Source: Myxococcales bacterium (GTDB lineage Bacteria > Myxococcota_A > Polyangia > Polyangiales > DASUME01). Taken from it: a DNA stretch of 64,000 bases. Made by a program: the position numbers and the translations under genes. This document shows positions 4,475 through 44,781 of the stretch, piece after piece. The stretch lies in the NCBI GenBank assembly GCA_047601445.1, contig JASGJH010000001.1, positions 4,064,001 to 4,128,000 of the forward strand, in the 5' to 3' direction. Every line of letters begins with the position of its first letter. Position 1 is the stretch's first letter. The notes under the pieces were generated by a model, which was given only the letters and a program-made list of their open reading frames with translations, did no database searches and was not told the DNA's origin.

Positions 4475-6771
4475 ATACACTCGTGCGAAAGAGAGGGCTG
4501 TGTTTGCTGCGCTGGAGCGTCTGGCTAACTTGCTGGTTCATGCTGAGCCTGAGCGGCACGGCGATGGCGCAAAACGGAACCGTCACCGCGCGCTTTCAAG
4601 GCAGTCCGCAGCGTGATGGCTATGGATGGGCGACCGTCACGGTGCGCTATGCGTTCCTGGCGTGTCCGGGCGATCCCAACGTGCAGCTGGCCTTGGGCCT
4701 GGACAAGTCTTCGCTCTCCACCGACACGCAGTATTGGTACAAGGGAAAGCTCTATCAGCTAGGCTCGCCGCCGCTCCCGCTCTCGGTCAAAAGGCCTTCG
4801 TTCATCGACACGCGGGTCGTGGCGAGCATCCATCGCGCCGGACAGATCGTGGGCAACGTGAACCGAGAGGTAGGGGCCACCTTGGGCATGGGTTGCTTCA
4901 ACGGCGAGCTCAGCGACGTCATGAGGTTCCCGCCAGACGTCAAGGATCGCAACGAGTTCCTGCGCAGCATGGGCCTGAATGAACCCACTCCGGGTCTCGA
5001 GTCCCTGCGCAACGACGACATCGAGTCCATCATCGAGCGCGACCTGGCCGAGCAGGAGCGTTTGAAGCGCGAGGCCGAAGCCGCGGCGGCCAAGGCGGCC
5101 AAGGAAAAAGCAGATCAGGAGAAGGCGGCGGCCGAACAGGCCGAGCGCGAGAAGAAGGAAGCCGAAGAGCGCGCACAGAAAGAAGCCGAAGAGCGCGAGA
5201 AGCGCGAGCGTGACGCGGCGGCCGCAGGCGCGGCGGGAGAAGGTGCCGGAGGCGGAGGCGGCGGAGGCACGACATCCGATGTGCCCGGTGGCTCCAGCGC
5301 GGGACTCACCGATGACAGCGGCGGCAGCTCTGGCAGCGGAAGCAACGGCGACGTTCCCATCGAGTCGACCCCCGAGTACCAACGCGAGCGCTGGGAACGC
5401 TTGCAGCAAGAACAGCGCGAAGCGGAACGCGAGGCCGAGCAAGCCGAGCGTGATCGCTCACTCCAGGCGCAGATCGAGGCCCAGCAAGCACGTGAGGCCC
5501 GTGCCGAGGCCATCGGCAACGCGGCGGCCGACGCGATTACCTCGTTCGGAGCCATGATCGTCGCTGCCAACCAACAGCGAGAGCTGGAAGAGCAGCGACG
5601 CTGGGAGCGCGAGCAGCGCGAGCGAGAGGAACGCGAGCGGGAGCTGGCGGACCGCTGGGAGCAGGCCAAGGCAAGCCCCGACTTCGAGGGCTTCTGCACG
5701 CCTTCACTCGACGCCGCCGACGGACAGCTCGGCGTGGGCGACACCTTCACGGGATGGCACACCTTCACGGACTGTTTGACGCAAGAGCTTCCGCGGACTC
5801 CGAGAGATCACCTGCGCTTCAACGTGATCGAGCCAGGCATGGTGCAAATCGACGTGTTCGGTCGGGTCAGCCGCGTTGAACTCGTGTCGCCGCTCGGCGA
5901 GATCATAGTGGCCGAGCGGATGCAGAACGCGGACGCCTCCTTACGCATCCGCCGCCCCGTGGTGACTGGTCCCCACATGCTGGTGGTGGTCGGCGTCGAA
6001 GACTTGGAGGACGAGTACCGAGTGGTCGCCCAGGTCGCACCTCCAGCGAAGCCGCGCGCCTGCATACGGGGCAGCTGCGGCCCGCGTTGGCTCGAGACCG
6101 GACCCGAGTTCGGTATCCAGCTCAACGGGCTCTACGGCTCGACCCAGCTGGACGCCCAGCCGAACGTGCCCGACAACCTCACGGTGCCCTTCAAGCCCTT
6201 CGAGCCGCACTATTTGCCTGCCCTTCAGCTTGCGCGCCGCAATCCCAAGGGTAGCTGGGGCGGACGCCTGGGATTCGCGACGAGCACGCTGGACGCGCTT
6301 CAAGCGGACTCCTACCTGCTGCGCCTGAGCTCTCGCCTGACCGAATCCGAGATCCGCCGCAGCTTGCTGCGCATGGGCATGTTCCGCGATGTGACCGTCT
6401 ACAGCTTCGAGTTCGCCGACATGCACCTCTCCACATACGTCGAGGGAGCGCTCTACATGCAGACGCTGCTCTTCGGCGGCAAGGGCGTCGATGCCGACGG
6501 CGAGGAGCACCGGCAGCGCATGCGCTTCGCGATGTTCACGCCGGCGCTCGGCGTGGGCGCAGACGTGGCCTTGCTCGACGGCCTGATGCTCGGTTTCTAC
6601 GTGGGCGGCGCGCTCAACGTGGTGGGCACGGGCAAGTACATCGGCCAGGGCGGAACCCAGCGCAGCGAGGACAGCGACATGCGTCCCCAGCTCTTCATGA
6701 ACACCGAGATTCGCACCACCTTATCCTACAAGTTTGGCCAAGGTTACCGTGACCCGCTCACTGAAGACTGA
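4471..6771 (+). CDS. Large secreted protein with Glu/Lys/Ala coiled coil, Gly/Ser linker and possible C-terminal beta-rich domain
   Basis: 766 aa. Signal peptide ending AMA-Q, EAEAAAAKAAKEKADQEK coiled coil, GTGA overlap with the previous gene. Confidence 0.7.
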   Translation: MNTLVRKRGLCLLRWSVWLTCWFMLSLSGTAMAQNGTVTARFQGSPQRDGYGWATVTVRYAFLACPGDPNVQLALGLDKSSLSTDTQYWYKGKLYQLGSPPLPLSVKRPSFIDTRVVASIHRAGQIVGNVNREVGATLGMGCFNGELSDVMRFPPDVKDRNEFLRSMGLNEPTPGLESLRNDDIESIIERDLAEQERLKREAEAAAAKAAKEKADQEKAAAEQAEREKKEAEERAQKEAEEREKRERDAAAAGAAGEGAGGGGGGGTTSDVPGGSSAGLTDDSGGSSGSGSNGDVPIESTPEYQRERWERLQQEQREAEREAEQAERDRSLQAQIEAQQAREARAEAIGNAAADAITSFGAMIVAANQQRELEEQRRWEREQREREERERELADRWEQAKASPDFEGFCTPSLDAADGQLGVGDTFTGWHTFTDCLTQELPRTPRDHLRFNVIEPGMVQIDVFGRVSRVELVSPLGEIIVAERMQNADASLRIRRPVVTGPHMLVVVGVEDLEDEYRVVAQVAPPAKPRACIRGSCGPRWLETGPEFGIQLNGLYGSTQLDAQPNVPDNLTVPFKPFEPHYLPALQLARRNPKGSWGGRLGFATSTLDALQADSYLLRLSSRLTESEIRRSLLRMGMFRDVTVYSFEFADMHLSTYVEGALYMQTLLFGGKGVDADGEEHRQRMRFAMFTPALGVGADVALLDGLMLGFYVGGALNVVGTGKYIGQGGTQRSEDSDMRPQLFMNTEIRTTLSYKFGQGYRDPLTED

Positions 6772-6787: not shown

Positions 6788-8041
6788 GTGCATTCATCCG
6801 TCGCACTTCGTTCGAAGCTAAGGCTGTCACTGCTCGCGTGGTGGCTGCTCACCAGCGCGGGCTGCCCCGAGAGCTCGGGCTCCCCCGAGTACGAGTGCAG
6901 CGGCGCACAGGAGCTTTCGTTGTCCTGGACCAGCGCAGGATCCAGCTACTGCAACACCGGCTCACTCCTGCCGAACGCGATCCAGGTCGACAGCGACGGC
7001 GGTCTCTCCGCGACCGGCTGCAGCTTTCCCGAAGGCAGCCGTCTGAGCGAGGCCTGCCAGCTCGTCATCCCCGCGATCGGTGGGGGCGCCCAGTGTTCGA
7101 GCAGCAGCAGCTACGGCTACGGATCCGTCAAGTTCTCCCTCTACGCAGAGGGGCTGGGCCCGCAGCTCTCCGGGAACGAACCGATCGCCGACAACCAGGC
7201 GACCGTGCACATCGCGACGGGGGATGGCTGCTCGGCGCCCTATCGGGTGAGCGTCTCGCGTCAGATCCGAAGTCCCCAAACGTCCTGTGAGTTCGTTTGC
7301 GTGAACTACGGGGACTGCGTCGACAACGACGTCGTGTGCGACGGAAACCCCGACTGCGCAGATGGTTCGGACGAGAGCGACTGCCCGGACAGCTGTGGGG
7401 ACGCCAGCCTGGGATACCAGTGCAGCGATGACACCTGCGCTACGCGCTGCGACGGTTCCTACGAGTGCGCCGACGGTAGCGACGAAGATGGCTGTGAGAG
7501 CAATCAGGTCTGCGAGTTCAGCTGCGGCAACGGTGAGTGCGTTTTCCTCTCGCAACAATGTGACGGCTACACCGATTGCGCGACTGGCGCCGACGAGCGC
7601 AACTGCAACTCATCCTGCTCCACCCACCTGATCTGTGACGGCAGATGCGTGCCTCCGAGCTGGATGTGCGACGGCGTGTACCAGTGCAGCGACCGCGCCG
7701 ACGAGCGCACCTGCAACGGCTGCAGCTTGAGCGAGATCGACTGTGGTGATGGCACCTGTCTGGACGACCGCTACCTGTGCAACGGCATCCGGGAGTGCGG
7801 CACGGGCGCCGACGAACAGGACTGCGCGTGTTCGGCCGGCCGCTTCGAGTGCTCGGGCAAGCCCTGCCAACCAGCGGCCAAGCGCTGCGATGGCATCAGC
7901 GACTGCGCGGGCGAGGACGAGGTCGACTGCCGCTGCCCCACCAACACCTTCGACTGCGTCGACGCCTGCGTGCCACGGAGCTTCCGTTGCAACGGCTTCG
8001 TGGACTGCAACAACGGAGCGGACGAGAGCAATTGCCCGTAA
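6788..8041 (+). CDS. Lipoprotein with seven LDL-receptor class A repeats
   Basis: LLTSAGC lipobox-like motif. Seven units ending C(D/N)GxxxCxxxxDExxC, e.g. CDGNPDCADGSDESDC and CNGFVDCNNGADESNC. Start may be GTG 6788 or 6734. Confidence 0.85.
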   Translation: MHSSVALRSKLRLSLLAWWLLTSAGCPESSGSPEYECSGAQELSLSWTSAGSSYCNTGSLLPNAIQVDSDGGLSATGCSFPEGSRLSEACQLVIPAIGGGAQCSSSSSYGYGSVKFSLYAEGLGPQLSGNEPIADNQATVHIATGDGCSAPYRVSVSRQIRSPQTSCEFVCVNYGDCVDNDVVCDGNPDCADGSDESDCPDSCGDASLGYQCSDDTCATRCDGSYECADGSDEDGCESNQVCEFSCGNGECVFLSQQCDGYTDCATGADERNCNSSCSTHLICDGRCVPPSWMCDGVYQCSDRADERTCNGCSLSEIDCGDGTCLDDRYLCNGIRECGTGADEQDCACSAGRFECSGKPCQPAAKRCDGISDCAGEDEVDCRCPTNTFDCVDACVPRSFRCNGFVDCNNGADESNCP

Positions 8042-8086: not shown

Positions 8087-8800
8087 TTGCGCGGCAATCC
8101 TTTGCCAGGCCAACGCAAGTTCCAAGCCCCACGCGGTGGGACCGTCGTGCTCCTCGTGGTCGGACTCGCCATCGCCAAGCTGTATGTGCTGCGCTACGGC
8201 TCGCCCCTCTGGGCCCTGGTTGACGAACCCGGTGAACGGTTCAGCGAAGCCGATGACGCTGCTGGTGAGGTCCTCGAGAACCCGCTCGAAGTGGAAGCGC
8301 TCATCCACGAGAAACCTCTCGAGCACTGGCTCGGATCCATCGAAGATTCCCTGCGGCGTTGCCGTCCCGATGTCCTTAGGCGCGCCCAATTGCGGCCGCC
8401 AGCCACCACGGAGGCGCTCGAGCAGCTCGCGGGCGAACTCGGGCACCCGCTTCCTCCCGAGCTACTGACCTTGCTGCGCTGGCACGACGGACAGCAAGGG
8501 CGCAACTCCCTGGCGGGCTCCGACTACGATTATCTCGATAGCCTGCTGCTCGGCACAGCCGACATCGCTGCGACCCTGCAACGGCTGAGGGGACTGCCCA
8601 AGTACGAACGGACGCCCCTGGTGCCCATCATGAAGAGCGTCGAGCACTCCTACTTCATCGCGATGGACTCCGTAGATCCGGGGGTACAGTGCGAGGTGTC
8701 CCTGGATCGCGATGCCGGCAAGGATCCGTGTCTCGTGGACAGCTTGCAGCAGCGCTTCGGCGTGTTGGCCCTGGACCTGGCCAAGAGCTGCTCGCCGTAG
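8087..8800 (+). CDS. SMI1/KNR4 (SUKH) family protein with N-terminal TM helix
   Basis: LRPPATTEALEQLAGELGHPLPPELLTLLRWHDGQ matches the SMI1/KNR4 N-terminal signature. Confidence 0.7.
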   Translation: MRGNPLPGQRKFQAPRGGTVVLLVVGLAIAKLYVLRYGSPLWALVDEPGERFSEADDAAGEVLENPLEVEALIHEKPLEHWLGSIEDSLRRCRPDVLRRAQLRPPATTEALEQLAGELGHPLPPELLTLLRWHDGQQGRNSLAGSDYDYLDSLLLGTADIAATLQRLRGLPKYERTPLVPIMKSVEHSYFIAMDSVDPGVQCEVSLDRDAGKDPCLVDSLQQRFGVLALDLAKSCSP

Positions 8801-32681: not shown

Positions 32682-33296
32682 TCAGCGCCACGTGGCGTAG
32701 ACCCCGAGCGCGGCCGAGATCACCATGCACAGGGCCGCGATGCGGAAAAAGCCGACCGCGAATGCGCGCGAGCGAAAGCGTCGGGCCAGGGCATCCGCAC
32801 TGACTCCGTAGACGGCGAGCCCGAGCAGCTCGGTGCACGTGACGGAGACCATCACGATGGCCGCCTGTGTCATCAGGGGCCGTTTGGGGTCGAGATACGC
32901 AGGCAGCATGCCGCCGAAGTAGACCAGCGCATTGGGATTGCCTAGCTGCAGCGCTACCCCGCTGGCGAACAAGCGTGTGCGCGGCGGCGCCTTTTCGCGC
33001 TCCAGCTGCACCGTACCAGCGCGGAACAGGCGCACACCGAGCACGATGATAAAGGCGAGACCTCCCAGCTTGAGCAGCGCGAATAGCAGCGGGAACGCCT
33101 GCGAAAGCGAGGCAGCCCCTGCCACCGCGAGACTCGTCCAGAGCAAGTTCGAGGCGCAGATGCCGAGCGCGGGCAGCATGGCGGGCCAGAAGCCGTAGCG
33201 AATGGAACAGGTCACCACCAACATCACGGCCGGGCCGGGTGTGAGTCCGCCGGCAAGGAAGAGCAACATGAGGGCGATCCACGCCGCGAGTTCCAT
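32682..33296 (-). CDS. LysE/RhtB family translocator
   Basis: LTPGPAVMLVV, LKLGGLAF, LQLGNPNALVYF. Confidence 0.88.
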   Translation of the reverse strand: MELAAWIALMLLFLAGGLTPGPAVMLVVTCSIRYGFWPAMLPALGICASNLLWTSLAVAGAASLSQAFPLLFALLKLGGLAFIIVLGVRLFRAGTVQLEREKAPPRTRLFASGVALQLGNPNALVYFGGMLPAYLDPKRPLMTQAAIVMVSVTCTELLGLAVYGVSADALARRFRSRAFAVGFFRIAALCMVISAALGVYATWR

Positions 33297-33397
33297 GGCG
33301 CCAAGGATGACGTGAAACGAAGCGAGAGCACGAGGGCGGCCGCCCAGGCCGGGGTGAGTACGGAATAGCCAGCATCCCTGGGCCCGTTCGCGGAGCC

Positions 33398-34351
33398 GTG
33401 GTCCAGCACTCCTCCTCCCATCACGGCCCGCTGCCCAAGTACGCCCGGCACAGACGCGGCATGCTCTGCGTGCTCGGCTGCCTGCTCGTTGGCGCCTGCT
33501 CCGATGAGCCCTGCCTCCCCCAGAAGGTCTACGCAGAGGACGACTCCTTTCCCGCCGGAGGAGGGGCGACCACGAAAGAAATGGCGGAACGCCTGGCCCA
33601 AGAACAGGCACTGCCCATCACCTGGGGCGGCGAAGAGCATGGGCTCGATTTCCCACCCTTGCCGATCCAGGGCGACGACGAACTGCTGATGCAAGTTACA
33701 CTCGAGAGTGACCTGACCCAGACGTTCTACGAAGGTCACTCCGACAACGGGGAGGACCATCCGCCTCAGCCCGTCAAAGGCAACTGCTACGCGCACGAAC
33801 CCGAGGCCCACGTGCATGTACACGTGCGAACCCGAAGCGGGATACTCGAGGGGTCGTTCGAAGCGAAGCTCGTCGTGGCGACTGAGCTGGAGCAGATGCT
33901 CTTTTTCGAGCGCACCGGACTGGAAACACCCGACGCGCTAGCGAACTACGCTGCCGCGCTCGGCTTCGACCGTCATCAGGTTCACCTGGGCCTGGCTCTC
34001 TACTACGACTTTCGAGGAAGACTTTCGTACGCTCGCGGGTTCCTCGTCATCGATGCCGAGAACGATCCGAGTCGCGACGTCTTCTTTGGTGCGTGCGGAG
34101 ATCAGCCTGGATTGGGTTGGGATGCGGACGCAGGCCTGCAACCCGACCCGCTCGATTGTCCGCCGATCCTGGCCTCGTGCATGAACCCCAAGGCGAGCGG
34201 GCTCGACAGCTGGGGCTCCTTCCTTGCCTGCCTCAACAAGCCTAATTGCGTGACGTGCCCAACTTCGTCGCCCGTGGACGGGGATCCTCAAAAGGCGGTC
34301 TTTGCCGCGTTCGATGGGCCTTGCCGCTGTACTCAGCTGGACATGCCGTGA
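33398..34351 (+). CDS. Hypothetical lipoprotein
   Basis: MLCVLGCLLVGAC lipobox-like segment. True start may be ATG 33461. Confidence 0.55.
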   Translation: MVQHSSSHHGPLPKYARHRRGMLCVLGCLLVGACSDEPCLPQKVYAEDDSFPAGGGATTKEMAERLAQEQALPITWGGEEHGLDFPPLPIQGDDELLMQVTLESDLTQTFYEGHSDNGEDHPPQPVKGNCYAHEPEAHVHVHVRTRSGILEGSFEAKLVVATELEQMLFFERTGLETPDALANYAAALGFDRHQVHLGLALYYDFRGRLSYARGFLVIDAENDPSRDVFFGACGDQPGLGWDADAGLQPDPLDCPPILASCMNPKASGLDSWGSFLACLNKPNCVTCPTSSPVDGDPQKAVFAAFDGPCRCTQLDMP

Positions 34352-34904: not shown

Positions 34905-35156
34905 TCGCCAACAACCACCAAGGTTGATCTCGGCCGCGACAGAGGCTCGCGGAGCGCTGCGCTTCAGCGCATCGAGCACGCGCAAAGGAAACACCGACAT
35001 CTTGCACTCACCCCTCGCTTGCGATTCGCGCTGCACTCAGAGTTCGAACGCGCACAAGCGGGTTAACCTCCGCACTCGCAGAGAAGATGCGTGATAGGAG
35101 ATGCTTGTACGACGGAGCTCTCCCCCGAGTGTCCGTCTGCAGAGAGGAGGTCTCTC

Positions 35157-35180: not shown

Positions 35181-35226
35181 TCGTAGCCAATCCTCCATTT
35201 CTTGGTTTCAACAAGGAGCAATCAAA

Positions 35227-35403
35227 ATGAAGTACAGCAATCAAAGCGGTGCTGTGACGAGCGAAGAGGATCTCTTGCTTTCGGATGAGGAGCTCGGCAG
35301 CGTGCATGGTGGACTCTCGACTCCCCCCAGGATTCCGATCCCGCCGCACTTTCCGCCGATCATTCGCCCACCGGTGACCTTCAACCCCGGCTTCTTCGCA
35401 TGA
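35227..35403 (+). CDS. Candidate RiPP precursor: 29-aa double-glycine leader + 29-aa Pro-rich core
   Basis: RBS AAGGAG. MKYSNQSGAVTSEEDLLLSDEELGSVHGG | LSTPPRIPIPPHFPPIIRPPVTFNPGFFA. LSDEELxxVxGG is the classic GG-leader motif. Confidence 0.8.
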   Translation: MKYSNQSGAVTSEEDLLLSDEELGSVHGGLSTPPRIPIPPHFPPIIRPPVTFNPGFFA

Positions 35404-35409
35404 GTCGGT

Positions 35410-35450
35410 GCAGGGGCGAGTTTCGGCTCGCGAGCGAAATTCGTCCCTGC
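35410..35450 (+). terminator. Stem-loop between the precursor genes and the P450 (mRNA-stabilising or attenuating element)
   Basis: gcaggggcgagtttcg pairs with cgaaattcgtccctgc: 16-bp stem, 14 WC + 2 GU. No U-tract follows. Confidence 0.6.
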
Positions 35451-35507
35451 GCTGCTCCCAACGCGGTCGTCGCGAATATGCCTACGAGAAGAGAGGAGAT
35501 TGAGCCG

Positions 35508-36716
35508 ATGCCCCCCGATCCTGTCTACAACCCGTTGGACGCAGACACCCTGGAGAACCCGTTTCCGATCTATGACTATCTGCGATCCAACGCGCCGGTT
35601 TATTGGCACGAGCAGATGCAGTCATGGGTACTCACCCGATACGCGGACTGCCGGAACGTACTCCTGGACCACAAGCTCTTCGCACGCGACGAACGGCGTG
35701 TGGGTGAGTCGATCCCAGACGATCGCCTGAGCGTGCAACAGCTGGATCCCCCGGAAGTCATCCCTTTACGCCGCTTGTTCTTTCAGGCGTTCAAGGCGGT
35801 CGACCTCGAGCAGATTGCAAGGCGCGCACGCGGCCAGATCAGGGGGCTGCTCGATGCCCATGGCAAGAGGCCGATCTTCGATCTCATGGCAGACGTCGCT
35901 TCACCCGTGGCGGAGTCGCTGACTTGCGAATTCTTCGGTTCACCCACCCCACCGGCGCCGGGAAAGTTCATGCAGATTGCCCATGGCATCGCTCTCGGAA
36001 TGGATGCGGGGCTCGAACCCTGTCAGAGGGGCGCCGGGCGGGCCGTCAGCGTCGAGCTCGACCGCATGGTGCGCGACTGGTCGGAGGACCCCATTCCGGG
36101 AAGTTTCATGGCTGAGGTCAAAGACAAGATCCTCCCACGGAAATACCCGGACACGTTGATCTACCGCACCGTCGACGCCATGGTGAACGCATCGTACTCC
36201 ACGATTTACGCGTCCATTGGAAACGCAGCGCTCACCCTGTTTCAGCATCCAGAGATCCGCGCCGCCTTCACTCCGCACAACCTGGTCAGCGGATGCGACG
36301 AGATCCTGCGCTTCGACAGCCCCGCACATGCAACGAGCCGTGTCGCCACCGAGCGCACCACCATCGGCGGCACGGTGATCGAGCGTGGACAGGTGGTCAT
36401 CACGTTGTTCGCCGCTGCGAATCGAGACCCCGACGGTTTTGAACGCCCCAACGATCTCGTTCTCGACCGCCGTCACAATCATCACCTGGGCTTCGGCTGG
36501 GGTTCGCACCAGTGCCTTGGCATCGGCCTGGCGAACGTCGCCCTGCACGAGTTCGTGTCTGCCGCCCTGGCGCTGCCCGCGTTGCGCTCCCTGGGCAAGC
36601 CGAAGCGCTTTCGAACGGCCACTCTGCGCTGGCTGCAAAACCTGCCCGTAACCGCCTCGCCACAGTCGTCACCGGAAATGGAGGAGCAACGTCATGGCAC
36701 AACTGAACACGCATGA
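35508..36716 (+). CDS. Cytochrome P450, resembling peptide-crosslinking (biarylitide BytO-type) P450s
   Basis: Heme motif HLGFGWGSHQCLG, ExxR in DEILRFDSP, RBS GAGGAG before ATG 35508. RRVGESIP...LSVQQLDPP and GMDAGL segments recalled from biarylitide P450s. P450 call is firm, subfamily less so. Confidence 0.9.
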   Translation: MPPDPVYNPLDADTLENPFPIYDYLRSNAPVYWHEQMQSWVLTRYADCRNVLLDHKLFARDERRVGESIPDDRLSVQQLDPPEVIPLRRLFFQAFKAVDLEQIARRARGQIRGLLDAHGKRPIFDLMADVASPVAESLTCEFFGSPTPPAPGKFMQIAHGIALGMDAGLEPCQRGAGRAVSVELDRMVRDWSEDPIPGSFMAEVKDKILPRKYPDTLIYRTVDAMVNASYSTIYASIGNAALTLFQHPEIRAAFTPHNLVSGCDEILRFDSPAHATSRVATERTTIGGTVIERGQVVITLFAAANRDPDGFERPNDLVLDRRHNHHLGFGWGSHQCLGIGLANVALHEFVSAALALPALRSLGKPKRFRTATLRWLQNLPVTASPQSSPEMEEQRHGTTEHA

Positions 36717-37830
36717 TGAATGGTCGCGAATCAGGGAAGTCATCGTCGGCAGCGCTGCCAACTACACTTCTCATGACCGAGAGCTCTCGTTCGACCTGTT
36801 CTTCCACGAAAACCTCTTCCGCTCGGACTGGGCCTACCCGCGCCTCAAGAGCGCGTGTCCCGTGCGCGATCGGGCCTGGGAGATCAAGCAGCGGTACGTC
36901 GAAGAGCTCAATGAAGACGTGGAAGGCCTCGTCGAGGTCCTGCGCTCTCTCGGCATCACCGTGCACAGGCCGATGCCGCTGCCGCCCAACACCCCCTCAA
37001 TCAAGGGCTTCGGCTGGGAAGCGATGCCCGTTCCTGCGCTCAACGTCCGCGACAACACGCTGATCCTCGGCAACGAGATCATCGAGACCCCGCCGGCCAT
37101 CCGCTCACGCTACCTCGAAACGCGCCTGCTTGCTCCCGCCTTCAAGCACTACCACGACGCAGGCGCTCGCTGGACGACGATGCCGCGTCCCCTCCTCACC
37201 GACCGCTCGTTCGATCTCTCCTACGCGCGCGACACCGAGACCAGCTTGGGGGGACCGACCGAGCCAATCGAGGATCCGCAAGCGTCGCCGTATGACGTGG
37301 GCTTCGAGATGATGTTCGACGGGGCTCAGTGCCTACGCCTTGGCCGCGACCTGGTGATGAACATCGCGAACGCCAACCACGCGCTCGCAGTTGACTGGCT
37401 CGAGCGTCATCTGGAGGGCCGCTACCGCATCCACCGTGCCTTCCGCATGAGTGACAACCACATCGACTCGATGATCTTGGCCTTGCGCCCCGGCGTCTTC
37501 CTTGCGCGTCACGCAGGCATCCGTGAGCACCTTCCGGAGTGCTTCAAGCGCTGGGAGTTCATCGTTCCTCCGGTGCCGGACGTCTTCCCCACCTACGAGG
37601 ACGCAGACCTCGTATTGACCAGCCCATACATCGACCTCAACGTACTCTCCATCAGCCCTACGACATTGCTGGCCAACGCGGCCTGCGTCGATCTGATCAG
37701 AACCCTCGAGCACCGGGGCTTCGAGGTGATCCCCGTTCGGCACCGTCACCGGCGCCTCTTCGGAGGTGGCTTTCATTGCTTCACCTTGGACACCGTCCGC
37801 GATGGCGGACTCGAGGACTACAGCGCCTAG
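36694..37830 (+). CDS. Amidinotransferase (glycine/inosamine-phosphate amidinotransferase family)
   Basis: HDEWSRIREVIVG, NVRD, MFDGAQ, HIDS, catalytic GGGFHCFTLDTVRDG. RBS GGAGGAG. Confidence 0.92.
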   Translation: MAQLNTHDEWSRIREVIVGSAANYTSHDRELSFDLFFHENLFRSDWAYPRLKSACPVRDRAWEIKQRYVEELNEDVEGLVEVLRSLGITVHRPMPLPPNTPSIKGFGWEAMPVPALNVRDNTLILGNEIIETPPAIRSRYLETRLLAPAFKHYHDAGARWTTMPRPLLTDRSFDLSYARDTETSLGGPTEPIEDPQASPYDVGFEMMFDGAQCLRLGRDLVMNIANANHALAVDWLERHLEGRYRIHRAFRMSDNHIDSMILALRPGVFLARHAGIREHLPECFKRWEFIVPPVPDVFPTYEDADLVLTSPYIDLNVLSISPTTLLANAACVDLIRTLEHRGFEVIPVRHRHRRLFGGGFHCFTLDTVRDGGLEDYSA

Positions 37831-37851: not shown

Positions 37852-39162
37852 GTGCGCATCCTGATTGGAAATCACATCGACGACTCACTGCTCTGGCAGA
37901 AGGATCAAAGGGCATTTAGTCAGCGCATCTTGTGGTTTGCGCAGGACGGCGACATCGTGATCCTCTCGTGCGAGCCGGACCCCTCTTTTCTCGAGTACGT
38001 CACGTCGCTTGCGGGGGTCGGACGCGACACCCTCGAGTTTCTCGTCGTGCCCCCGGGCGGCCACGGAACACGGCTATTCGATCCCAATTCACTGCTCGAT
38101 CCCGACTTCGTGGCCGAGGTGAAACGGCGCATCGGCGACGTGTCTGATGTCTTTGCGCTGTGGCCCTCCGCCCAGGTCGCCGAGTTTGCCGAACTGCTCG
38201 GGATCCGAGAGAAGCTACCGGGGGCCAGCTTTTTCGCTCAACAAGGCGACGAGCTCGCGAACAACAAAGGAAACTTCCGTGCCTTTGCCGCGGCCCTCGG
38301 CGTACCCGTCGCCGAGGGGGCAGTTTGCCGAACCAAGGAGCACGCAGAGCGAGTCATCGCGCGGCTCCTGCGGACCGGGCCAGTCATGGTCAAACAGGTT
38401 CACAACGGGGCCGGCAACGGCAACGAAGTTCTCGTCTGCGACGACGAGTTGGCCACTGACCATGCCGGCAACAATCGTCGACAGCGAATCGAACCTGGAT
38501 TTTTCGAGGTTCGCGACTACCTCGAAGCGCGCTGGAATTGGGCATCCGTCGGCGGGCGATTCGCCGTGGTGGTCGAGCGCTTCGTGCCAGGGGCTCGCAC
38601 CATATACGCCGAATTCGAGGCCAGAGACGATGGACTGGCGCACACCGCAACCGGATCACTGGGATATGAGCACGGCCGGCTCGTCGAAGAGGTTACGCCG
38701 CTGCGAGGCGTCACCGATGCGGTGCTCGCGCGACTCGTACACCTTGGCGGCCGCCTCGCCGAGACCTACCGGGCGTTTGGCTACCGCGGGTTCATGAGCG
38801 CTGACGCCGTCGTTGACCAATCCGGCAACCTGTTCTTCACCGAAATGAACGCACGTGTGGGCGCTTCTCTCCACCTCTACGAAGGCATCGGAAAGCGGGT
38901 CGTCGATCAGTTTCGTGTTCCTGAGCGGTCACTGATACAGCTCGTGACGCCCAAGCATTGGAAGGTACCAGGCTTCGACGCATTTTCGCGCGTCACTCGC
39001 GAACTCGGCGTCGCCTTCGACCCACTGACTCGGAAAGGAGTGATGGCGGCGATGCCCTTCGCTGGCGAGCCCTGCGCGGGGGGCCTCCTGTTTTGTATAG
39101 CCTACGAGACGGAGCGAGAGCACCACGCCATCGTGGCCCGGCTGACAGAGCGGTTCGGCTGA
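37852..39162 (+). CDS. PGM1-related ATP-grasp peptide ligase (preATP-grasp domain)
   Basis: MRILIGN...QRILWFAQDGDIVIL...PDPSFLEYV, NNKGNFRAFAA, GYRGFMSADAV, FTEMNARVG. RBS GGGAGG. Confidence 0.85.
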   Translation: MRILIGNHIDDSLLWQKDQRAFSQRILWFAQDGDIVILSCEPDPSFLEYVTSLAGVGRDTLEFLVVPPGGHGTRLFDPNSLLDPDFVAEVKRRIGDVSDVFALWPSAQVAEFAELLGIREKLPGASFFAQQGDELANNKGNFRAFAAALGVPVAEGAVCRTKEHAERVIARLLRTGPVMVKQVHNGAGNGNEVLVCDDELATDHAGNNRRQRIEPGFFEVRDYLEARWNWASVGGRFAVVVERFVPGARTIYAEFEARDDGLAHTATGSLGYEHGRLVEEVTPLRGVTDAVLARLVHLGGRLAETYRAFGYRGFMSADAVVDQSGNLFFTEMNARVGASLHLYEGIGKRVVDQFRVPERSLIQLVTPKHWKVPGFDAFSRVTRELGVAFDPLTRKGVMAAMPFAGEPCAGGLLFCIAYETEREHHAIVARLTERFG

Positions 39163-39186: not shown

Positions 39187-40455
39187 TCATGGCGCACTGG
39201 CTTCCGCGGCTAGCGCTGGCGCCGCTTCGTTGAGACGGGACACCCGCCGCTGGAGGCTCGCCATCAAGTCCGTGCATTGCTCTTGATCGACCGCCTCGAC
39301 TACTGCAACGCCAATGCAGGTGGTCGAGCTCTCACGCATGTCGGCCATCGTCTGGCCCACCGGCACGGTCAGCGTGGCCTCCACGACGCCAGGAAGAGCG
39401 CGGATGTCCTCGCATCCAACACGATTGATCCGACCGGCCGACGCGGGGAGAGTCGTTACTCCGAAGACCTTATTCGGCTCACACGGTCGCCGCGGGATCG
39501 CGTCGCCCGTGATCGAGAGCGCTCCGGCCGCCCATAGGTCGACCCCGACCGCGCGCTCAATCATGCTCGAGATGTTGTTGCCAGCTACCCGCGCGGCCAG
39601 CTCGCCCGCAACGAAATCGAACGTACCCGGTCGAGCGAAGACCTCGAAGTGAAACACCCCGGTGACGTGCCCCAAGGCGTCGAGGGCCCGTTGGGTGAAC
39701 GTGCCCGCGGCTTGGTAGAGCTGCGGATGGCGGGACGGCGGGAAGGAAATGCTGGCGTGCTGTTTGCCGTTCTTGATCTCGAGGATAGGGGTCACGTACC
39801 TGGACGCATGGAACGTGTGCAGCTGGCCTTGCAGTACGACCCCGTCGAAGTGCCACTCATCGCCGGCGACAAACTCCTCGACCATCAGCCGGCGCAAATT
39901 CGGGTAATTCGCCACCGTGGTAGATACCGCGCTGACGAGCGCTTCGTCGTCCGATACGAACTGCACGTGACGCGTACCGTACCCGGCGACCGGCTTCAGC
40001 ACGAAGGGAGGACGCAGACCGGCGGTTCGTACCGACGCGAGCACAATGTCGGGGCTGGCACATGCATCGGGCACCACGACGAATCTGGCGGTGGGTATCC
40101 CAGCCTCGTGCCATGCGGCTTTTTGCACCGGCTTGTCGCGACAACGCAGAGCTACCTCGGGGTCGAGCCCACGGATGCCCAGGAGTCGTGCCAGGATGGC
40201 GCTCGAAACGACCCCCGTCTCGCAATTCGAGACCACGGCCCCGATCGGACGTGCGAGCGCACCCACCTGATGCAGCGCCGACCATAGGGACTCGACAGAG
40301 GTAAGCGTGTCGATGGCGCAAAAGTGACGGGCCCGTGGGCGCAGCGCCGAAACCCAGGGCTCTTGCCAGGCTTCGTACAGAAGGGTCACCTCGTGACCGG
40401 CCTCGACGAGGGCATCGAACGCTTCCCGTTTTGCTCTCACCAGCACTACGTGCAT
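39187..40455 (-). CDS. ATP-grasp enzyme (L-amino acid ligase/carboxylate-amine ligase-like); C-terminal part of ORF 39187..42522
   Basis: RCRDKPVQK, PFVLKPVAGYGT, MVEEFVAGDEWHFDG, GVFHFEVF, GELAARVAG. Own in-frame ATG at 40455 preceded by AAGGAG. Confidence 0.85.
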   Translation of the reverse strand: MHVVLVRAKREAFDALVEAGHEVTLLYEAWQEPWVSALRPRARHFCAIDTLTSVESLWSALHQVGALARPIGAVVSNCETGVVSSAILARLLGIRGLDPEVALRCRDKPVQKAAWHEAGIPTARFVVVPDACASPDIVLASVRTAGLRPPFVLKPVAGYGTRHVQFVSDDEALVSAVSTTVANYPNLRRLMVEEFVAGDEWHFDGVVLQGQLHTFHASRYVTPILEIKNGKQHASISFPPSRHPQLYQAAGTFTQRALDALGHVTGVFHFEVFARPGTFDFVAGELAARVAGNNISSMIERAVGVDLWAAGALSITGDAIPRRPCEPNKVFGVTTLPASAGRINRVGCEDIRALPGVVEATLTVPVGQTMADMRESSTTCIGVAVVEAVDQEQCTDLMASLQRRVSRLNEAAPALAAEASAP

Positions 40456-42522
40456 CGCTCTGCTCTCCTTCCGGTAGGCAGCTCTACTCTTCGATGTTTG
40501 GCGATTTGGAGCGGGCTCCGAGCGTGTCCCATGGGCAACAGAGGGAGCCCAATCACAACCTCTCCCGCATTTGAGCGAAGGCGGATTCGAAGCGTTCACG
40601 AGGTCGGATCCAATCGGCACTCGGGCGGTGAAGCCCTTCTCCAGGCGCTCGCATCTTACGTGAGTTGCTCTCGTCGTAGACGAGCCGGGTCGTCCAACGC
40701 TGACCGCGAGCTCCCCGCCCCGTTCCAGTGACAATCTTTGGCCGAAGGCCGACACCCCGGAGAACTCGTGAGGGACAGCCACATCGATCGCGTAGCCTTG
40801 GCCCGGCTCAAATAGATACCGGATGCGGAGACCCGATGAGCGGTCGTCCCAGGAACGGAGCACGCACAGCTCGGCCGAGTCCTCAAAGTGTCGGCGATTG
40901 GAGGCGATCAAGCCCTCGATTCGGTCGGAGATCAGCGCGCGATCCCCCGACTCGGCGTACTGGCGGAGCAGCGGAACGTGCCGTCGCAACAGCTGCGGGA
41001 GATACAACTCGGGTCGCTTCTCGTTGCGGATGACAGCCAGTCGAAAGGTCAGCTCCTGAAGCTCAGCGCGCTCGATTTCAGAGTTCGTCGCCCGCGCATC
41101 GAGCTCCTCGCGATACCGAGCGTACGCATCGATCAAGTCCCGAATCCGCTCGTCCTGAGCGCCTCCGAGCAGAACCTGGTTCAGCGCTTCTCGTCCTCTG
41201 GGCCACAGGCGAGCCAGCAAGCAGAGGATGCCACCGAGATCGTAGGTCCCCGTCCAGCGCGGCATGCGCCTCTCGATGAGAATCGGGGATGTGCCATCGA
41301 AAGCAACCTGATGAAGGTGCAAACCAAGCTGACCGTAGAACTTGCTCGGAGTGCACCGGGCCAGCCAGAATTGGGGAAACCCGCACAAGCGCAGGAGGCC
41401 TCGGATGACAGCCTGGGCATACTTTCGCTTCACCCGTTGCTCGAGCTCCTCGCGCTCGGGGATGGCAGCAGCGAGTCGAGGCGACAGCCCGAGGGCGGTG
41501 CAGTGCGCAAGATTTCTCAGCATGTCGCTGAGATTGGCAGGCGAGTCGGAACGGAACGGCGAGCCGCGCACCGCAATGGTGGAACCATGGTTTGGTTGAG
41601 TCGATTGCGTCTCGAAGTCGAGCAGTCGCCCACTGGTCTCGACATTCGACGACGACAGCGCTCCGTGGGGTGCCCGCCGCACGAGTAGCGCAGCTTGCTG
41701 TTCGGCAAGGCGATCGGCGAACTGCAGGAACCCCTCGCGTAGCGCCTCCTCGCAGGAGGCGGGCTCCGGAGTGTTCCGCGGCAAGGCGGCCATGATGCAT
41801 TGCTGCAGGGACCGGAGACTATCGGCGTCCTGACGAGAATAGGGGTTGAGCATGAAATGCGCCGGGCGCACCGGGAAAGGGCGTAGGAGCAGCGCGCGGC
41901 GCTTGCTGCGGCCATCCGGCAAGAGCATTGATGTCCCACAGTCCAGAATGGCGAGCACGCGGTTGGCGCCATGCGGCGCTTCGGCCTGGTTGAGCTCACC
42001 CCAGACTGCCTCGCGCATGGCATCTCCCAAGAACAGACCTCCATGCCGATGATCGTGCGGACTTCCGTGGTCGGCCAGCGACGTCGTCCCGATGCCTTTG
42101 ATCTGCAGCGATCCGAGCGCGGCTGCGCGGCCGCTCCCACGGTTGGCCCCGATGCCCTCACCACCGTATCGATCGGCATAAAAAGCCCGGGCTTCACCGA
42201 TGAACATGCCAGGCTCATCCTGGTCGTCCGGGATCCGATACGCGAAAGCTTCGAGGAATATGTGCTCGAGCTCAGGTGTGATGCCGTCGCTAGGCAACCC
42301 GAGCTCGAGGTCGCGCAACAGAGACCAGTTCACCCACAGCAGCCTCGCGTCGCGCATTCTTCGGGCGAGCACCGGCACGAACGCCTCCGGTGGTGGTGCC
42401 ACCGGCGCGTTGTCCATGAGCCGAGCGAGCCCGGCTCGGAGCCTGTCGTAGGGGGAAACGGACACGCCAATAGAGGCATGAAGCGATGTTGCGTCGCGAG
42501 CAATCCTCATCACCCCGCACAA
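40456..42522 (-). CDS. SelO/YdiU-like (MchC-like) nucleotidyltransferase-fold domain, in frame with the downstream ATP-grasp
   Basis: LLWVN, ADRYGGEGIGANRGSGRA, LQIKGIGTT, REAVWGE, HGALSSSN...LLDFET parallel the SelO motifs (GDGRA, QLKGAG, RE, HGxxNxDN, D). Start may be 42417. Confidence 0.7.
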
Positions 42523-42554: not shown

Positions 42555-43514
42555 TCACCCGGTTGCAAAGCGATCGAGCGCGCTCATCAGGGCCAATCGC
42601 TTGCTGTTGCTGCGCAGGTGCCCGGCGTCGTCCACCGCGATGAGCTCCGCCCCCGCCCATGCTCGCGCAAGGGCCCAGGCGGTGTCGATTGGACAACTCA
42701 TGTCTCGTCTTCCGTGGATCACCACCCCGGGGATTCCATCGAGCCGCGCCGCGTTCTGGATCAGAGCGCCTTCTTCCAACCAACCGCCATGCCGAAGGTA
42801 GTGGGTACAAATGCGCACGAAGGCCAGCATGTCCTCGACCGGCATCTCAGAGCTCGAGGCCGCGCCGGCACCAGTCTCGAGTGAGAGCACCGCGTCCTCC
42901 CATTTGCACCACCCCCTGGCGGCCGCCACCCTGACGGCCTCCTCAGGGTGATCCATGCGCTGGGCGTAAGCCTCGATCAGGTCCGCCCCACGCGCGGTGT
43001 TGGGTAAGGGACCTCGGAATTGTTCCCATGCTTCCGGGAAGAAACGAGCAGCCCCTGCGTACAGCCACTCGGCCTCACGACGAGTCCACGTAGTCACATT
43101 GCTGAGCACGAGCTCAGAAACCGACTCGCGATGGCGATGCGCATAGGCCAGCGCGAGCGCGACACCCCACGAGGCGCCGGAGACCAACCAACGCTCGATG
43201 CCGAGGTGACGCCGGAGGGATTCCATGTCCGCGATGAGGTGATCCGTCGTGTTGCATGACATGTCCGTGGCGAGGTCACTGGCGGAGGGGATCGACCTTC
43301 CGCAGCCCCGTTGGTCGAACAGAACCACCCTATACTGCTCCGGGTCGAACGCGCGCGCCATGTTGGGAGCGCAGCCTTGCCCGGGACCGCCGTGCAGCAC
43401 CACAGCGGGCTTTCCGTGGGGTACGCCGAAGACCTGCCACGCGATGCGGTTTTCGGAGCTGACCTCCAGGTGTCCTTCTTGGATGGGTCCTCGCAGCGGA
43501 TACAAGTCGACCAT
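42555..43514 (-). CDS. pip: Proline iminopeptidase (peptidase S33)
   Basis: VVLHGGPG, FDQRGCGRS, nucleophile GASWG, HGRRD, DAGH. Confidence 0.88.
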   Translation of the reverse strand: MVDLYPLRGPIQEGHLEVSSENRIAWQVFGVPHGKPAVVLHGGPGQGCAPNMARAFDPEQYRVVLFDQRGCGRSIPSASDLATDMSCNTTDHLIADMESLRRHLGIERWLVSGASWGVALALAYAHRHRESVSELVLSNVTTWTRREAEWLYAGAARFFPEAWEQFRGPLPNTARGADLIEAYAQRMDHPEEAVRVAAARGWCKWEDAVLSLETGAGAASSSEMPVEDMLAFVRICTHYLRHGGWLEEGALIQNAARLDGIPGVVIHGRRDMSCPIDTAWALARAWAGAELIAVDDAGHLRSNSKRLALMSALDRFATG

Positions 43515-43571: not shown

Positions 43572-44615
43572 CTACCCTGAAGACGGGCCCGTGTCTCGTG
43601 GAGGAACGGCCTGCGCGACGAGCACGTGAACGCCGGAGCGGGTGGTCAACACTCGCTCGATCACGAAGCCGGCTGCAACGAGCAAGGCGCGGTTCTCGTC
43701 GAGCGTGCGATCCCGAGCCCCGAACAACACGAGCATCGTCAGGTCTCGAATCGACGATGGAAGTCCGCCCTCGCGCTCCAGGTCGAGCGAGCGCTCGATG
43801 AGCAAGAGGCGCCCACCTCCCGTGATGGCGCGCCGCACGTTGCCAAGGATTTGCAAGGCCTCTTCGTCGCGCCAGTTGTGAATCACTGCCTTGAGCAAAT
43901 AGAGTTCTGCTCCAGCAGGAACCTCCCGCAACAGGTCGCCGGCGAGCGCTGTGCCTCGCCCGCTCACTCCTCGCTCCTGAAGAGTATGCCTGACTTGTTC
44001 GACCACGGCCGCCTGCTCGACCGCGATTCCTTGCAACTCCGGGTGTCCCTTCAGTACCTCGGCGAGCAGGGTTCCGTCACCCGCTCCCAGGTCGACGACC
44101 AGGCCTCGCTCGGGGAACTCGTACAGGGCTTCGAACTCGTTCCAGAAATGGGAGCTGTTGAAGCGCATCGTGCGCGCGAAGGAACGCGCCAGCTCGGGGG
44201 TTTCGCTCATGTAGGTCCACAGCCCCCGCCCATGCACGTGCTCGAAAGCCGAGCGACCGGTACGCAACGCGTAGCTCAAGCAGGCCCAGGCGTCGTAGTA
44301 TTCGGTTCCAGACATTCGAGCGTGACCATGAAGCAGACCCGCCTCGTGGTGCAGCAGCTTGCAGAGCGCGGTACCGTGAACCAGACCGTCGACGCGCTGT
44401 ACGAGCTCGAGTCCCTCAAGCGCATCCAAGTACCTGCGCAGTTCGTTCGTGCCGATACCGGTCAGCTCCGCGAGAGTGCGTTCGGTCTGCGGCCCCTCGG
44501 CCAGAAAGTCCGGGATGCGGAGCGTCACCGCCGAGGCCACGAGCTGCGTAACGATGTACCCACCCAACAGCTTCCCGAGCCGCTCGCCTTCCGGCCTGGC
44601 TTCGTTCTGGAGCAT
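43572..44615 (-). CDS. SAM-dependent methyltransferase (O-MT family 2 with dimerisation domain)
   Basis: VVDLGAGDG, GDLLREVP, YLLKAVIHNWRDE, DLTMLVLFGARDRT. RBS GAGGAGG before ATG 44615. Confidence 0.92.
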   Translation of the reverse strand: MLQNEARPEGERLGKLLGGYIVTQLVASAVTLRIPDFLAEGPQTERTLAELTGIGTNELRRYLDALEGLELVQRVDGLVHGTALCKLLHHEAGLLHGHARMSGTEYYDAWACLSYALRTGRSAFEHVHGRGLWTYMSETPELARSFARTMRFNSSHFWNEFEALYEFPERGLVVDLGAGDGTLLAEVLKGHPELQGIAVEQAAVVEQVRHTLQERGVSGRGTALAGDLLREVPAGAELYLLKAVIHNWRDEEALQILGNVRRAITGGGRLLLIERSLDLEREGGLPSSIRDLTMLVLFGARDRTLDENRALLVAAGFVIERVLTTRSGVHVLVAQAVPPRDTGPSSG

Positions 44616-44781
44616 TCGGAACCTCCTCAACTGCTTGCCTCAAGTCGTACTCGAGTGCGAGGCCCATGGCGACGAGGTTAACCCCGCGTGGCGCAAGATG
44701 ACGGCGGTCCAGCCCGCCCAACCGCCGATGGTCCCTATCCGCCATAGCGATGGCGTTCAAGCGCCCCGCCAACGCCCCATG

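Follow-up and report, generated by a model that had tools for sequence, protein, structure and literature searches.

Double-glycine leaders follow a consensus in which positions -4, -7, -12 and -15 are hydrophobic and a residue close to -8 is acidic, and peptides that carry them are known as a kind. Cytochrome P450 enzymes of the P450Blt/RufO type have Met-x-Tyr-x-His pentapeptides as substrates. Among the 435 P450-precursor pairs counted in the part of PMC12150307 used here, YDH is the commonest biarylitide motif, with 94 pairs. The ligase PGM1 couples a guanidino acid to a core peptide of ribosomal origin, whose N-terminus it acylates, as described in passages of PMC8939145 and PMC13417212. 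The latter, a 2026 survey of 277 clusters, associates precursors with Asp at position 4 with Pgm1 homologues in 47 clusters, according to its main part. The cluster type is thus known bioinformatically, and in the sections of the cited literature that were drawn on, no product of a YDH-biarylitide/Pgm1-type cluster is reported. Here we describe a cluster of this type from a Myxococcales bacterium, in a stretch of 64,000 nucleotides (nt) of contig JASGJH010000001.1 (assembly GCA_047601445.1, positions 4,064,001 to 4,128,000); the whole stretch is called the window, and positions are counted within it unless stated otherwise. Its precursor cassette holds a 58-codon open reading frame (ORF) that starts with ATG, lies at 35227-35403 on the plus strand and encodes a peptide with a double-glycine leader and a proline-rich core. 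What is new is this peptide without relatives and its place in a biarylitide precursor cassette.

Among everything searched, the 58-codon gene was found only in this cluster. We consider the chances about even that it is a lineage-specific gene for an exporter-processed double-glycine peptide, and that it was recruited to take the precursor slot in a YDH-biarylitide/PGM1-ligase operon gained by horizontal transfer.

A double-glycine leader and a host peptide family

The ORF translates as MKYSNQSGAVTSEEDLLLSDEELGSVHGGLSTPPRIPIPPHFPPIIRPPVTFNPGFFA, which divides into the leader MKYSNQSGAVTSEEDLLLSDEELGSVHGG and the core LSTPPRIPIPPHFPPIIRPPVTFNPGFFA. In agreement with the usual form of double-glycine leaders, which have ~15-30 residues and end in Gly-Gly, the leader comprises 29 residues with the C-terminal end LSDEELGSVHGG, its last three residues being HGG. 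Val is found at position -4, Leu at -7 and -12, Ser at -11, Glu at -8/-9 and Leu at -13/-14. The core contains 10 Pro, 2 Arg, 1 His and 4 Phe residues and neither Cys, Trp nor Tyr; four Pro-Pro motifs fall within its 29 codons, the net charge is about +2, and the predicted mature N-terminus is Leu-Ser-Thr, not Pro. The translation bears out an earlier note on this DNA, which had read a double-glycine leader and a core of this composition from the sequence. The same note regarded the ORF as a second precursor of the cluster, and the anatomy agrees with that: a ribosome-binding site (RBS), the leader, the best-scoring frame and a hairpin after the stop codon are all present. An in-frame GTG at 35254, which lacks a good RBS, would give a leader of 20 residues, the length found in the host family described below.

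The leader motif is not a chance occurrence, because it is found once in the genome where 0.1-0.3 occurrences are expected. Over the 19.0 million residues obtained by translating the genome in six frames, L[ST]x[DEQ][DE]Lxx[LIVM]xGG matches only this leader, compared with 0.10 matches expected from composition, and LSxxELxx[IVL]xGG likewise was observed once, compared with 0.32 expected. The reversed genome gave no match to these patterns, which were written after the peptide had been seen, although they follow the textbook consensus. A relaxed double-glycine pattern selected one ORF in the 64-kb window, the 58-codon ORF, and none in ~107 kb of related loci. The proline content of the core is rare as well: windows of 29 residues with at least 10 Pro make up 0.19% of the six-frame translation (36,436 of 19,005,024). 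Scored by codon log-odds derived from 1,113 long ORFs of this genome, the ORF reaches +0.23 bits per codon, the highest of the six frames (-0.19 to -1.34 in the other five) and inside the span of 0.12-0.42 covered by the neighbouring genes, with 0.32 for the leader and 0.15 for the core. Its G+C content at third codon positions (0.70) is the highest of the three plus-strand frames; one antisense frame has 0.71, and the neighbouring genes have 0.73-0.82. The length of the ORF is uninformative at 59% GC, where by arithmetic 58 stop-free codons arise by chance in ~14% of frames.

The organism is a diderm with a genome of a single 9.5-Mb contig (66% GC), in which Omp85 and HlyD-type adaptor genes are present; a match to the AgmX/PglI C-terminal domain reached 36.7 bits, compared with a cut-off of 40 bits, a hint of Myxococcota. 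Two ORFs at 4.869 and 8.275 Mb of the genome encode exporters that combine a C39 domain (102.4 and 106.5 bits) and ABC parts with the catalytic-Cys motif QLTPTDCG. Genes for double-glycine peptides lie before both, and at the exporter that was checked, two HlyD-type adaptor genes lie in between. Among these exporter-linked genes, with a slash marking the end of the leader, are MNENMLVSLDDAALEDVNGG/LSVNLG... and a tandem of three that read MK[KN]QEMFVSVEE.ALESVAGG/LLDI.... The exporter ORF at genome position 4,869,356-4,872,079 has a Pro/Ser-rich C-terminal tail of ~150 residues with repeats ..SPHTPSPSRAPLA.., which the other exporter does not have.

A profile of four host leaders recovered 13 genes at E <0.001 among 171,839 six-frame ORFs. 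The family takes the forms MK[NK]Q.FVSVEE.ALESVAGG/LLDI.NG.. and MNENMLVSLDDAAL[ED][ED]VNGG/LS.., with starts of the type MK[NKY]Q and Gly/Asn/Leu-rich cores of 41-55 residues; one member, at 3,943,671 on the plus strand, has a Cys-rich core. The sites are at 8.2718-8.2730, 4.8671, 5.4560-5.4564, 3.7108-3.7116, 3.9437 and 3.7415 Mb of the genome (L045-L048), and no NCBIfam model matched the three members scanned. Six of the 13 genes directly precede the two exporters, while seven are remote, 0.59-1.16 Mb from either exporter. Two remote sites showed no C39 or ABC gene among the large ORFs scanned (14/22). Hence, processing of double-glycine peptides in trans seems to be usual in this genome.

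The leader of the 58-codon ORF aligns with the exporter-linked host leaders at Ser19, Leu23, Val26, Gly28, Gly29 and Leu30. In local comparisons with the region, 9 of 12 family members match best at the end of this leader, as in LDDAALDEVNGGLS compared with LSDEELGSVHGGLS. The likeness also covers the initiation region, where the 20 nt before the ATG (TTCAACAAGGAGCAATCAAA) match those of the family member at 3,711,417(-) at 15 of 20 positions. None of the other genomic ATGs that share the placement of GGAG (3,270 in all) matches as well; four other members match at 10-12 positions, and random ATGs reached at most 11 in 20,000 trials. The earlier note had seen in the common ATGAAGTAC (MKY) start of the two small ORFs of the cluster a hint of duplication or of a shared recognition tag. 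The identity is real, but as a sign of either it is weak, with no similarity extending beyond the 9 nt and a repeat of this length expected about once per 700 nt by arithmetic. Because one host-family member, MKYQEMFASTEERALDFVAGG/YGESCG..., also starts with ATGAAGTAC and the RBS spacers are similar, descent from the host family would explain the shared MKY at least as well as a link to the mini-ORF. A frameshifted host-family core was considered as the source of the Pro-rich core and rejected, since none of the family cores has a match in any reading frame here.

The precursor slot of a biarylitide operon

The 58-codon ORF lies 70 nt downstream of a mini-ORF encoding MKYDHVG and directly before a P450 gene (Table 1). 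MKYDHVG is a biarylitide precursor of the YDH type, because the adjoining P450 belongs to the P450Blt/RufO group. Like BytA precursors, it has between 5 and 8 residues, aromatic residues at positions 3 and 5 and a place beside a BytO-type P450; the 58-residue peptide has Tyr3 but Asn5. The MKYDH string had no match in the literature searched. The ten best PDB matches of the P450 (22yx, 9m47, 8ukz, 9eby, 8spp, 8spc, 8u2m, 8u3n, 9jvj and 9jv0) have E-values from 3.8e-79 to 7.9e-57, and the next match has only 1.3e-31. According to the passages of PMC13651536 that name them, 8U2M is P450Blt, 8SPC, 8SPP and 9EBY are RufO, and 22YX is NsRufO. A start of the P450 at the ATG at 35400, which would overlap the stop codon of the ORF (ATGA) and add 36 codons, was rejected because homologues begin near 35508, the start there is preceded by its own GAGAGGAG, and the hairpin would be coding.

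This hairpin starts where the 58-codon ORF ends, at its stop codon, and has no U-tract, while the 53 nt after MKYDHVG show no folding (z +0.86). A long GC-rich hairpin is found ~15-30 nt after the mini-ORF in all five related loci with a YDH mini-ORF. The stems comprise ~10-23 pairs and the z-values range from -1.4 to -5.4; for three of the five, 0 of 200 shuffles were as stable. In the four Streptomyces plasmids introduced below the hairpins lie at ~6910-6985 (L025-L028), in the metagenome contig L021 at 5642-5700. The 58-codon ORF thus sits within a conserved order of precursor, hairpin and enzymes, before the P450. In operons for peptides that are made on the ribosome and modified after translation, this order is usually read as giving more precursor than enzyme message. 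Scans of the region for promoter and terminator consensus sequences found nothing. The hairpin was also considered as a repeated element of the repetitive extragenic palindromic (REP) type, which was rejected because the genome has no second copy. The conserved hairpin could help to locate unannotated mini-precursors.

Seven related clusters were compared: four Streptomyces plasmids (L025-L028), a metagenome contig (L021), a Bacillus plasmid (L024) and a Duganella metagenome-assembled genome (L013 with L030); a further locus, L022, has no ligase in the stretch examined. P450, amidinotransferase, PGM1-type ligase and an M[ST]YDH mini-ORF recur in the four plasmids from Streptomyces and in the metagenome contig, and the amidinotransferase-ligase pair recurs in Duganella. 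In Streptomyces, MSYDH or MTYDH lies 68-99 nt before the P450 (38-41% identity), which is followed by a PGM1-related ligase (44-48%), an Asp/Asn beta-hydroxylase, the amidinotransferase (66-70%) and a second ATP-grasp gene. The metagenome contig has MSYDH directly after its P450 (43%), a PGM1-like ligase (36%) and a stand-alone ATP-grasp protein with 48% identity to the C-terminal portion of the window's 1111-residue protein. The Bacillus plasmid has MNYNH just after the P450 and two ATP-grasp genes. In these last two loci the mini-ORF (MSYDH at 5627 and MNYNH at 8210) is thus 3' and not 5' of the P450, each with a strong RBS. The Val-Gly extension of MKYDHVG is absent from the Streptomyces and metagenome mini-ORFs. 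In Duganella the amidinotransferase (83%) and the ligase (58%) are preceded by an epimerase and a P450 (35%), and no mini-ORF of 5-8 codons was found in L030. On the reverse strand of L030, ~370 nt before the P450, an 80-codon ORF with an RBS starts with MCYNHVTSHL.. and continues, in the same frame, as an XRE-type helix-turn-helix protein, which has an internal Met of its own. This ORF may be a mini-precursor minus its stop codon, or a coincidence.

None of the seven related clusters contains a relative of the 58-residue peptide or any ORF with a double-glycine leader, and a lax tblastn search with the peptide across eight related loci gave a best E-value of 0.017, for a Pro-rich piece only. 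The peptide is co-encoded with a PGM1 homologue, yet it does not recur in the homologous clusters. The earlier note had proposed that it is the amine nucleophile for the PGM1-type ligase, and that the ligases of the cluster might join the two ribosomal peptides. Neither proposal is supported here, since P450, amidinotransferase and ligase recur without the peptide and related clusters lack any such peptide. The tBLASTn search beside homologous clusters that the note had suggested returned no similar peptide, and absence from related clusters is what the note itself had named as speaking against it. The conserved YDH peptide would be the more economical partner of the PGM1-type ligase, because the P450, the amidinotransferase and both types of ATP-grasp enzyme, for which orthologues exist, all occur in clusters without the 58-residue peptide. 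Searches with the ligase gave no close relative of the cluster among 40 genomes from the genus and order, and searches with the P450 gave none among 400 genomes of the phylum, where the best identity was 33-35%. The DNA of the window between 32208 and 42760 found no match in nine genomes of the same genus, in a search that is weak for genomes this divergent.

Table 1. Features of the precursor cassette and of the genes that follow it (positions in the window)
Feature	Position	Strand	Basis or detail
RBS GAGGAGG of mini-ORF	35144..35150	+	read from sequence; 6 nt before ATG 35157
Biarylitide-type mini-ORF MKYDHVG*, 7 codons	35157..35180	+	Tyr3-x-His5, Asp4
RBS AAGGAG (35213-35218) and 8-nt spacer of 58-codon ORF	35213..35226	+	read from sequence
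Leader MKYSNQSGAVTSEEDLLLSDEELGSVHGG, 29 codons	35227..35313	+	translation; predicted cleavage site after Gly-Gly
Core LSTPPRIPIPPHFPPIIRPPVTFNPGFFA, 29 codons plus stop	35314..35403	+	translation; no relative found
Hairpin, 25 predicted pairs	35402..35457	+	-40.6 kcal/mol, z -3.93, 0/200 shuffles as stable
Cytochrome P450, P450Blt/RufO (biarylitide) group	35508..36716	+	PDB sequence matches
Amidinotransferase	36694..37830	+	StrB1 (1bwd) E 9.1e-46, AGAT 1e-43, also SxtG, HsvA
PGM1-type ATP-grasp peptide ligase	37852..39162	+	PGM1 (3wvq) E 2e-78, residues 1-421
1111-codon ORF, N-domain (weakly SelO-like) and L-amino-acid-ligase-type ATP-grasp	39187..42522	-	domain matches
Prolyl aminopeptidase (S33)	42555..43514	-	TIGR01249, 294.4 bits, cut-off 259.75
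O-methyltransferase	43572..44630	-	Methyltransf_2, E 1.1e-33

The PGM1-type ligase is a full-length homologue of PGM1, including the pre-ATP-grasp domain (E 2.2e-24), and shares strand and operon with the 58-codon ORF. For the N-domain of the 1111-codon ORF (690 residues), no Pfam or PDB sequence match was found. It has four relatives, all of them stand-alone metagenome proteins of 621-680 residues with 46-50% identity, and a weak hhalign match to the genome's SelO (probability 56%, E 1e-4, 237 columns) that spans the glycine-rich and HG..N regions. The amidinotransferase-ligase pair has a LysE-type exporter gene in its neighbourhood both in the window (32682-33611, minus strand) and in Duganella (L013, 3819-4424, minus strand), a hint that the two enzymes yield a small amino-acid-like product of their own. 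The prolyl aminopeptidase is absent from the related loci examined and has no close orthologue in the nine same-genus genomes, and the O-methyltransferase was not found in the related loci examined. The distribution of the aminopeptidase, in a sample of one, is compatible with a functional link to the Pro-rich peptide, to which the earlier note had connected it. Enzymes of this family remove only an N-terminal Pro. The aminopeptidase could equally trim Met-Lys from the biarylitide precursor; for myxarylin, the part of PMC12951456 that deals with precursor trimming assigns this step, as a proposal, to a prolyl oligopeptidase, a member of another serine peptidase family.

Proposed mechanism and rival explanations

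If the gene encodes a recruited, exporter-processed peptide, it would be co-transcribed with the MKYDHVG mini-ORF, upstream of the hairpin that sets the precursor genes apart from the P450 gene and the enzymes encoded after it, and translated from the ATG at 35227. One of the two C39-peptidase ABC exporters would recognise the leader in trans and cleave it behind Gly28-Gly29, which is apparently the route of the host's own double-glycine peptides, and a 29-residue, Pro-rich and weakly cationic peptide would be exported. The chemistry of the cluster would consist of a cross-link between Tyr3 and His5 made by the P450, followed by amidino-acyl ligation by the PGM1-type ligase, and would not need the 58-residue peptide. 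We infer all of these steps from the anatomy of the locus, from co-transcription, translation, cleavage and export to the lack of a role in the YDH and amidino-acyl chemistry.

Several observations weigh against a functional exported peptide. No relatives were found by a shared-word search of 5.8 billion protein clusters, by phmmer in 1.84 billion representatives or in the six frames of 40 relatives of the organism, where the best hits (E 0.004 and 0.007) both contain internal stop codons. In its own genome the peptide found only itself, the other match having an E-value of 0.44. The codon score is not decisive: among non-coding windows free of stops 9% reach it, and among genuine coding windows 16% stay below it. 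Position -15 of the leader is Asp and not hydrophobic, and the leader is ~9 residues longer than those of the host family, whose profile gave the ORF 4.5 bits and an E-value of 300 (line 101 of 293 listed). The sole leader match in NCBIfam was NF046113 at an E-value of 0.092, Pfam gave no match, and the genome scan with TIGR01847 did not report the ORF; both curated and family leader models are very short and have low power. Matches in a protein atlas scored at most 0.84, within noise, and those to lantibiotic and ComC leader families are a lead only. The 64-kb window contains no exporter or peptidase gene for a double-glycine leader, and the two exporters are 0.77 and 4.18 Mb away, although the seven remote host-family genes lie just as far from theirs. 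Moreover, an exact 10-nt direct repeat, AGCAATCAAA, at 35217-35226 and 35236-35245 brackets the ATGAAGTAC start of the ORF; its first copy is the RBS spacer and its second, inside the ORF, encodes Ser-Asn-Gln. This internal copy could be a sign of local rearrangement, possibly in a decaying gene.

A decaying fragment is indeed a serious rival, albeit an unlikely one. A piece of a host double-glycine gene comprising RBS, start and leader would have landed here, and the core would be GC-rich read-through. The absence of relatives, the internal duplication at the 5' end, a core that is shorter than the 41-55 residues of the host family, the modest codon score with its lower value in the core and a length that chance readily supplies would all follow from such an origin. 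It accounts less well for a leader motif that is fully intact, for a frame that is the best of six, for a proline content as rare as the one observed and for an ORF end that coincides with the start of the conserved hairpin; moreover, the genome has no DNA paralogue of the region as a source of the copy. Slightly less probable still is a role as ligase substrate, in which the PGM1-type ligase would acylate the N-terminus of the core with an amidino-amino acid or the cross-linked YDHVG, the aminopeptidase doing the trimming. The completeness of the PGM1 homologue and the place of the ORF in the precursor cassette of the same operon are consistent with it, as is the Val-Gly extension that the Streptomyces and metagenome mini-ORFs lack. 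The peptide, the prolyl aminopeptidase, the methyltransferase and the fusion of an N-domain to the second ligase are also parts unique to this cluster, but their co-occurrence is a single case. Each ligase with an orthologue occurs without the peptide in the four Streptomyces plasmids, L021 and Duganella, the mature N-terminus is predicted to begin with Leu and not with Pro, and the Pgm1 association published in PMC13417212 is, as far as its main part describes it, with mini-precursors.

A product in two parts, to which we attach a low probability, would consist of the cleaved core capped by the PGM1-type or the fused ATP-grasp ligase with a cross-linked, amidino-decorated Tyr-Asp-His-Val-Gly or with an amidino-amino acid. 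If true, it would be a bacterial Pro-rich peptide with a biaryl warhead, a counterpart of the animal Pro-rich ribosome-targeting peptides and the first ligase-joined pair of separately translated peptides; any use of the peptide by the ligases would open a new route to hybrid peptides. Very improbable, finally, is a regulatory upstream ORF, in which ribosomes pausing at the Pro-Pro motifs, depending on EF-P or proline supply, would alter the hairpin and the read-through into the P450 and ligase genes. The density of four such motifs in 29 codons would suit it, and a ribosome terminating at the stop codon would cover the 5' arm of the hairpin. However, it leaves the canonical double-glycine leader unexplained, which is expected only 0.1-0.3 times per genome, and the hairpin has no U-tract, leaves the RBS of the P450 outside and is found in related operons without any such ORF.

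The recruited double-glycine peptide gene remains the reading we prefer. Pgm1-linked biarylitide clusters are common, with 47 reported, and this is the only one among those examined with a second, leader-bearing peptide gene. No leader-bearing second precursor in a biarylitide cluster was found in the literature searched, and the terms 'second precursor' and 'double-glycine' occur 0 times in PMC13417212, its supplement aside. Even as a mere passenger, the gene would show a host export-leader cassette slotted into an acquired operon. For genome mining it suggests caution, as the partner of the PGM1-type ligase is most likely the YDH peptide of 5-7 residues and not the conspicuous leader peptide. 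It is also a small gene open to testing, as its 58 codons include a predicted cleavage site and two exporters are candidates for handling its product.

Comparison with known systems

With class II microcins and bacteriocins, as with the 13-member, C39-exported family of the host, the peptide has in common the Gly-Gly leader with Leu at -12, Ser at -11, Glu at -8, Leu at -7 and Val at -4. Also typical of double-glycine peptides are the small, unmodified-looking core without Cys and a host that has two exporters with HlyD-type adaptors. It resembles the host family in its RBS region, but differs from it in the Pro-rich core of 29 residues, the longer leader and the lack of a significant score with the host profile. 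Neither an exporter, an adaptor nor an immunity gene is found nearby, and its location inside a P450/ligase operon sets it apart from the family as well.

The likeness to the pheganomycin precursor, drawn by description, lies in a leader-bearing ribosomal peptide beside a PGM1-type ligase and a pathway of the amidinotransferase type. However, the recurrent partner in biarylitide-Pgm1 hybrids is, in the main part of PMC13417212, the mini-ORF with Asp-4 and not a leader peptide. Compared with BytA (5-8 residues), the peptide shares the Met-Lys-Tyr start of many BytA sequences and the place directly before a P450 of the P450Blt/RufO type, whereas it has 58 residues and Asn5 and hence no second aromatic residue for a cross-link.

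Animal Pro-rich antimicrobial peptides are strongly cationic. Judged by composition, the core resembles Bac5, oncocin and apidaecin in being about one third Pro, with Pro-Pro pairs flanked by Arg, Ile or Phe. The likeness to Bac5 seen in the earlier note therefore holds for the proline content and the Pro-Pro pairs, but not for the charge, as the 29 residues include only 2 Arg and carry about +2. The peptide also differs from the animal ones in being bacterial and in having a double-glycine leader in place of a cathelin or insect propeptide.

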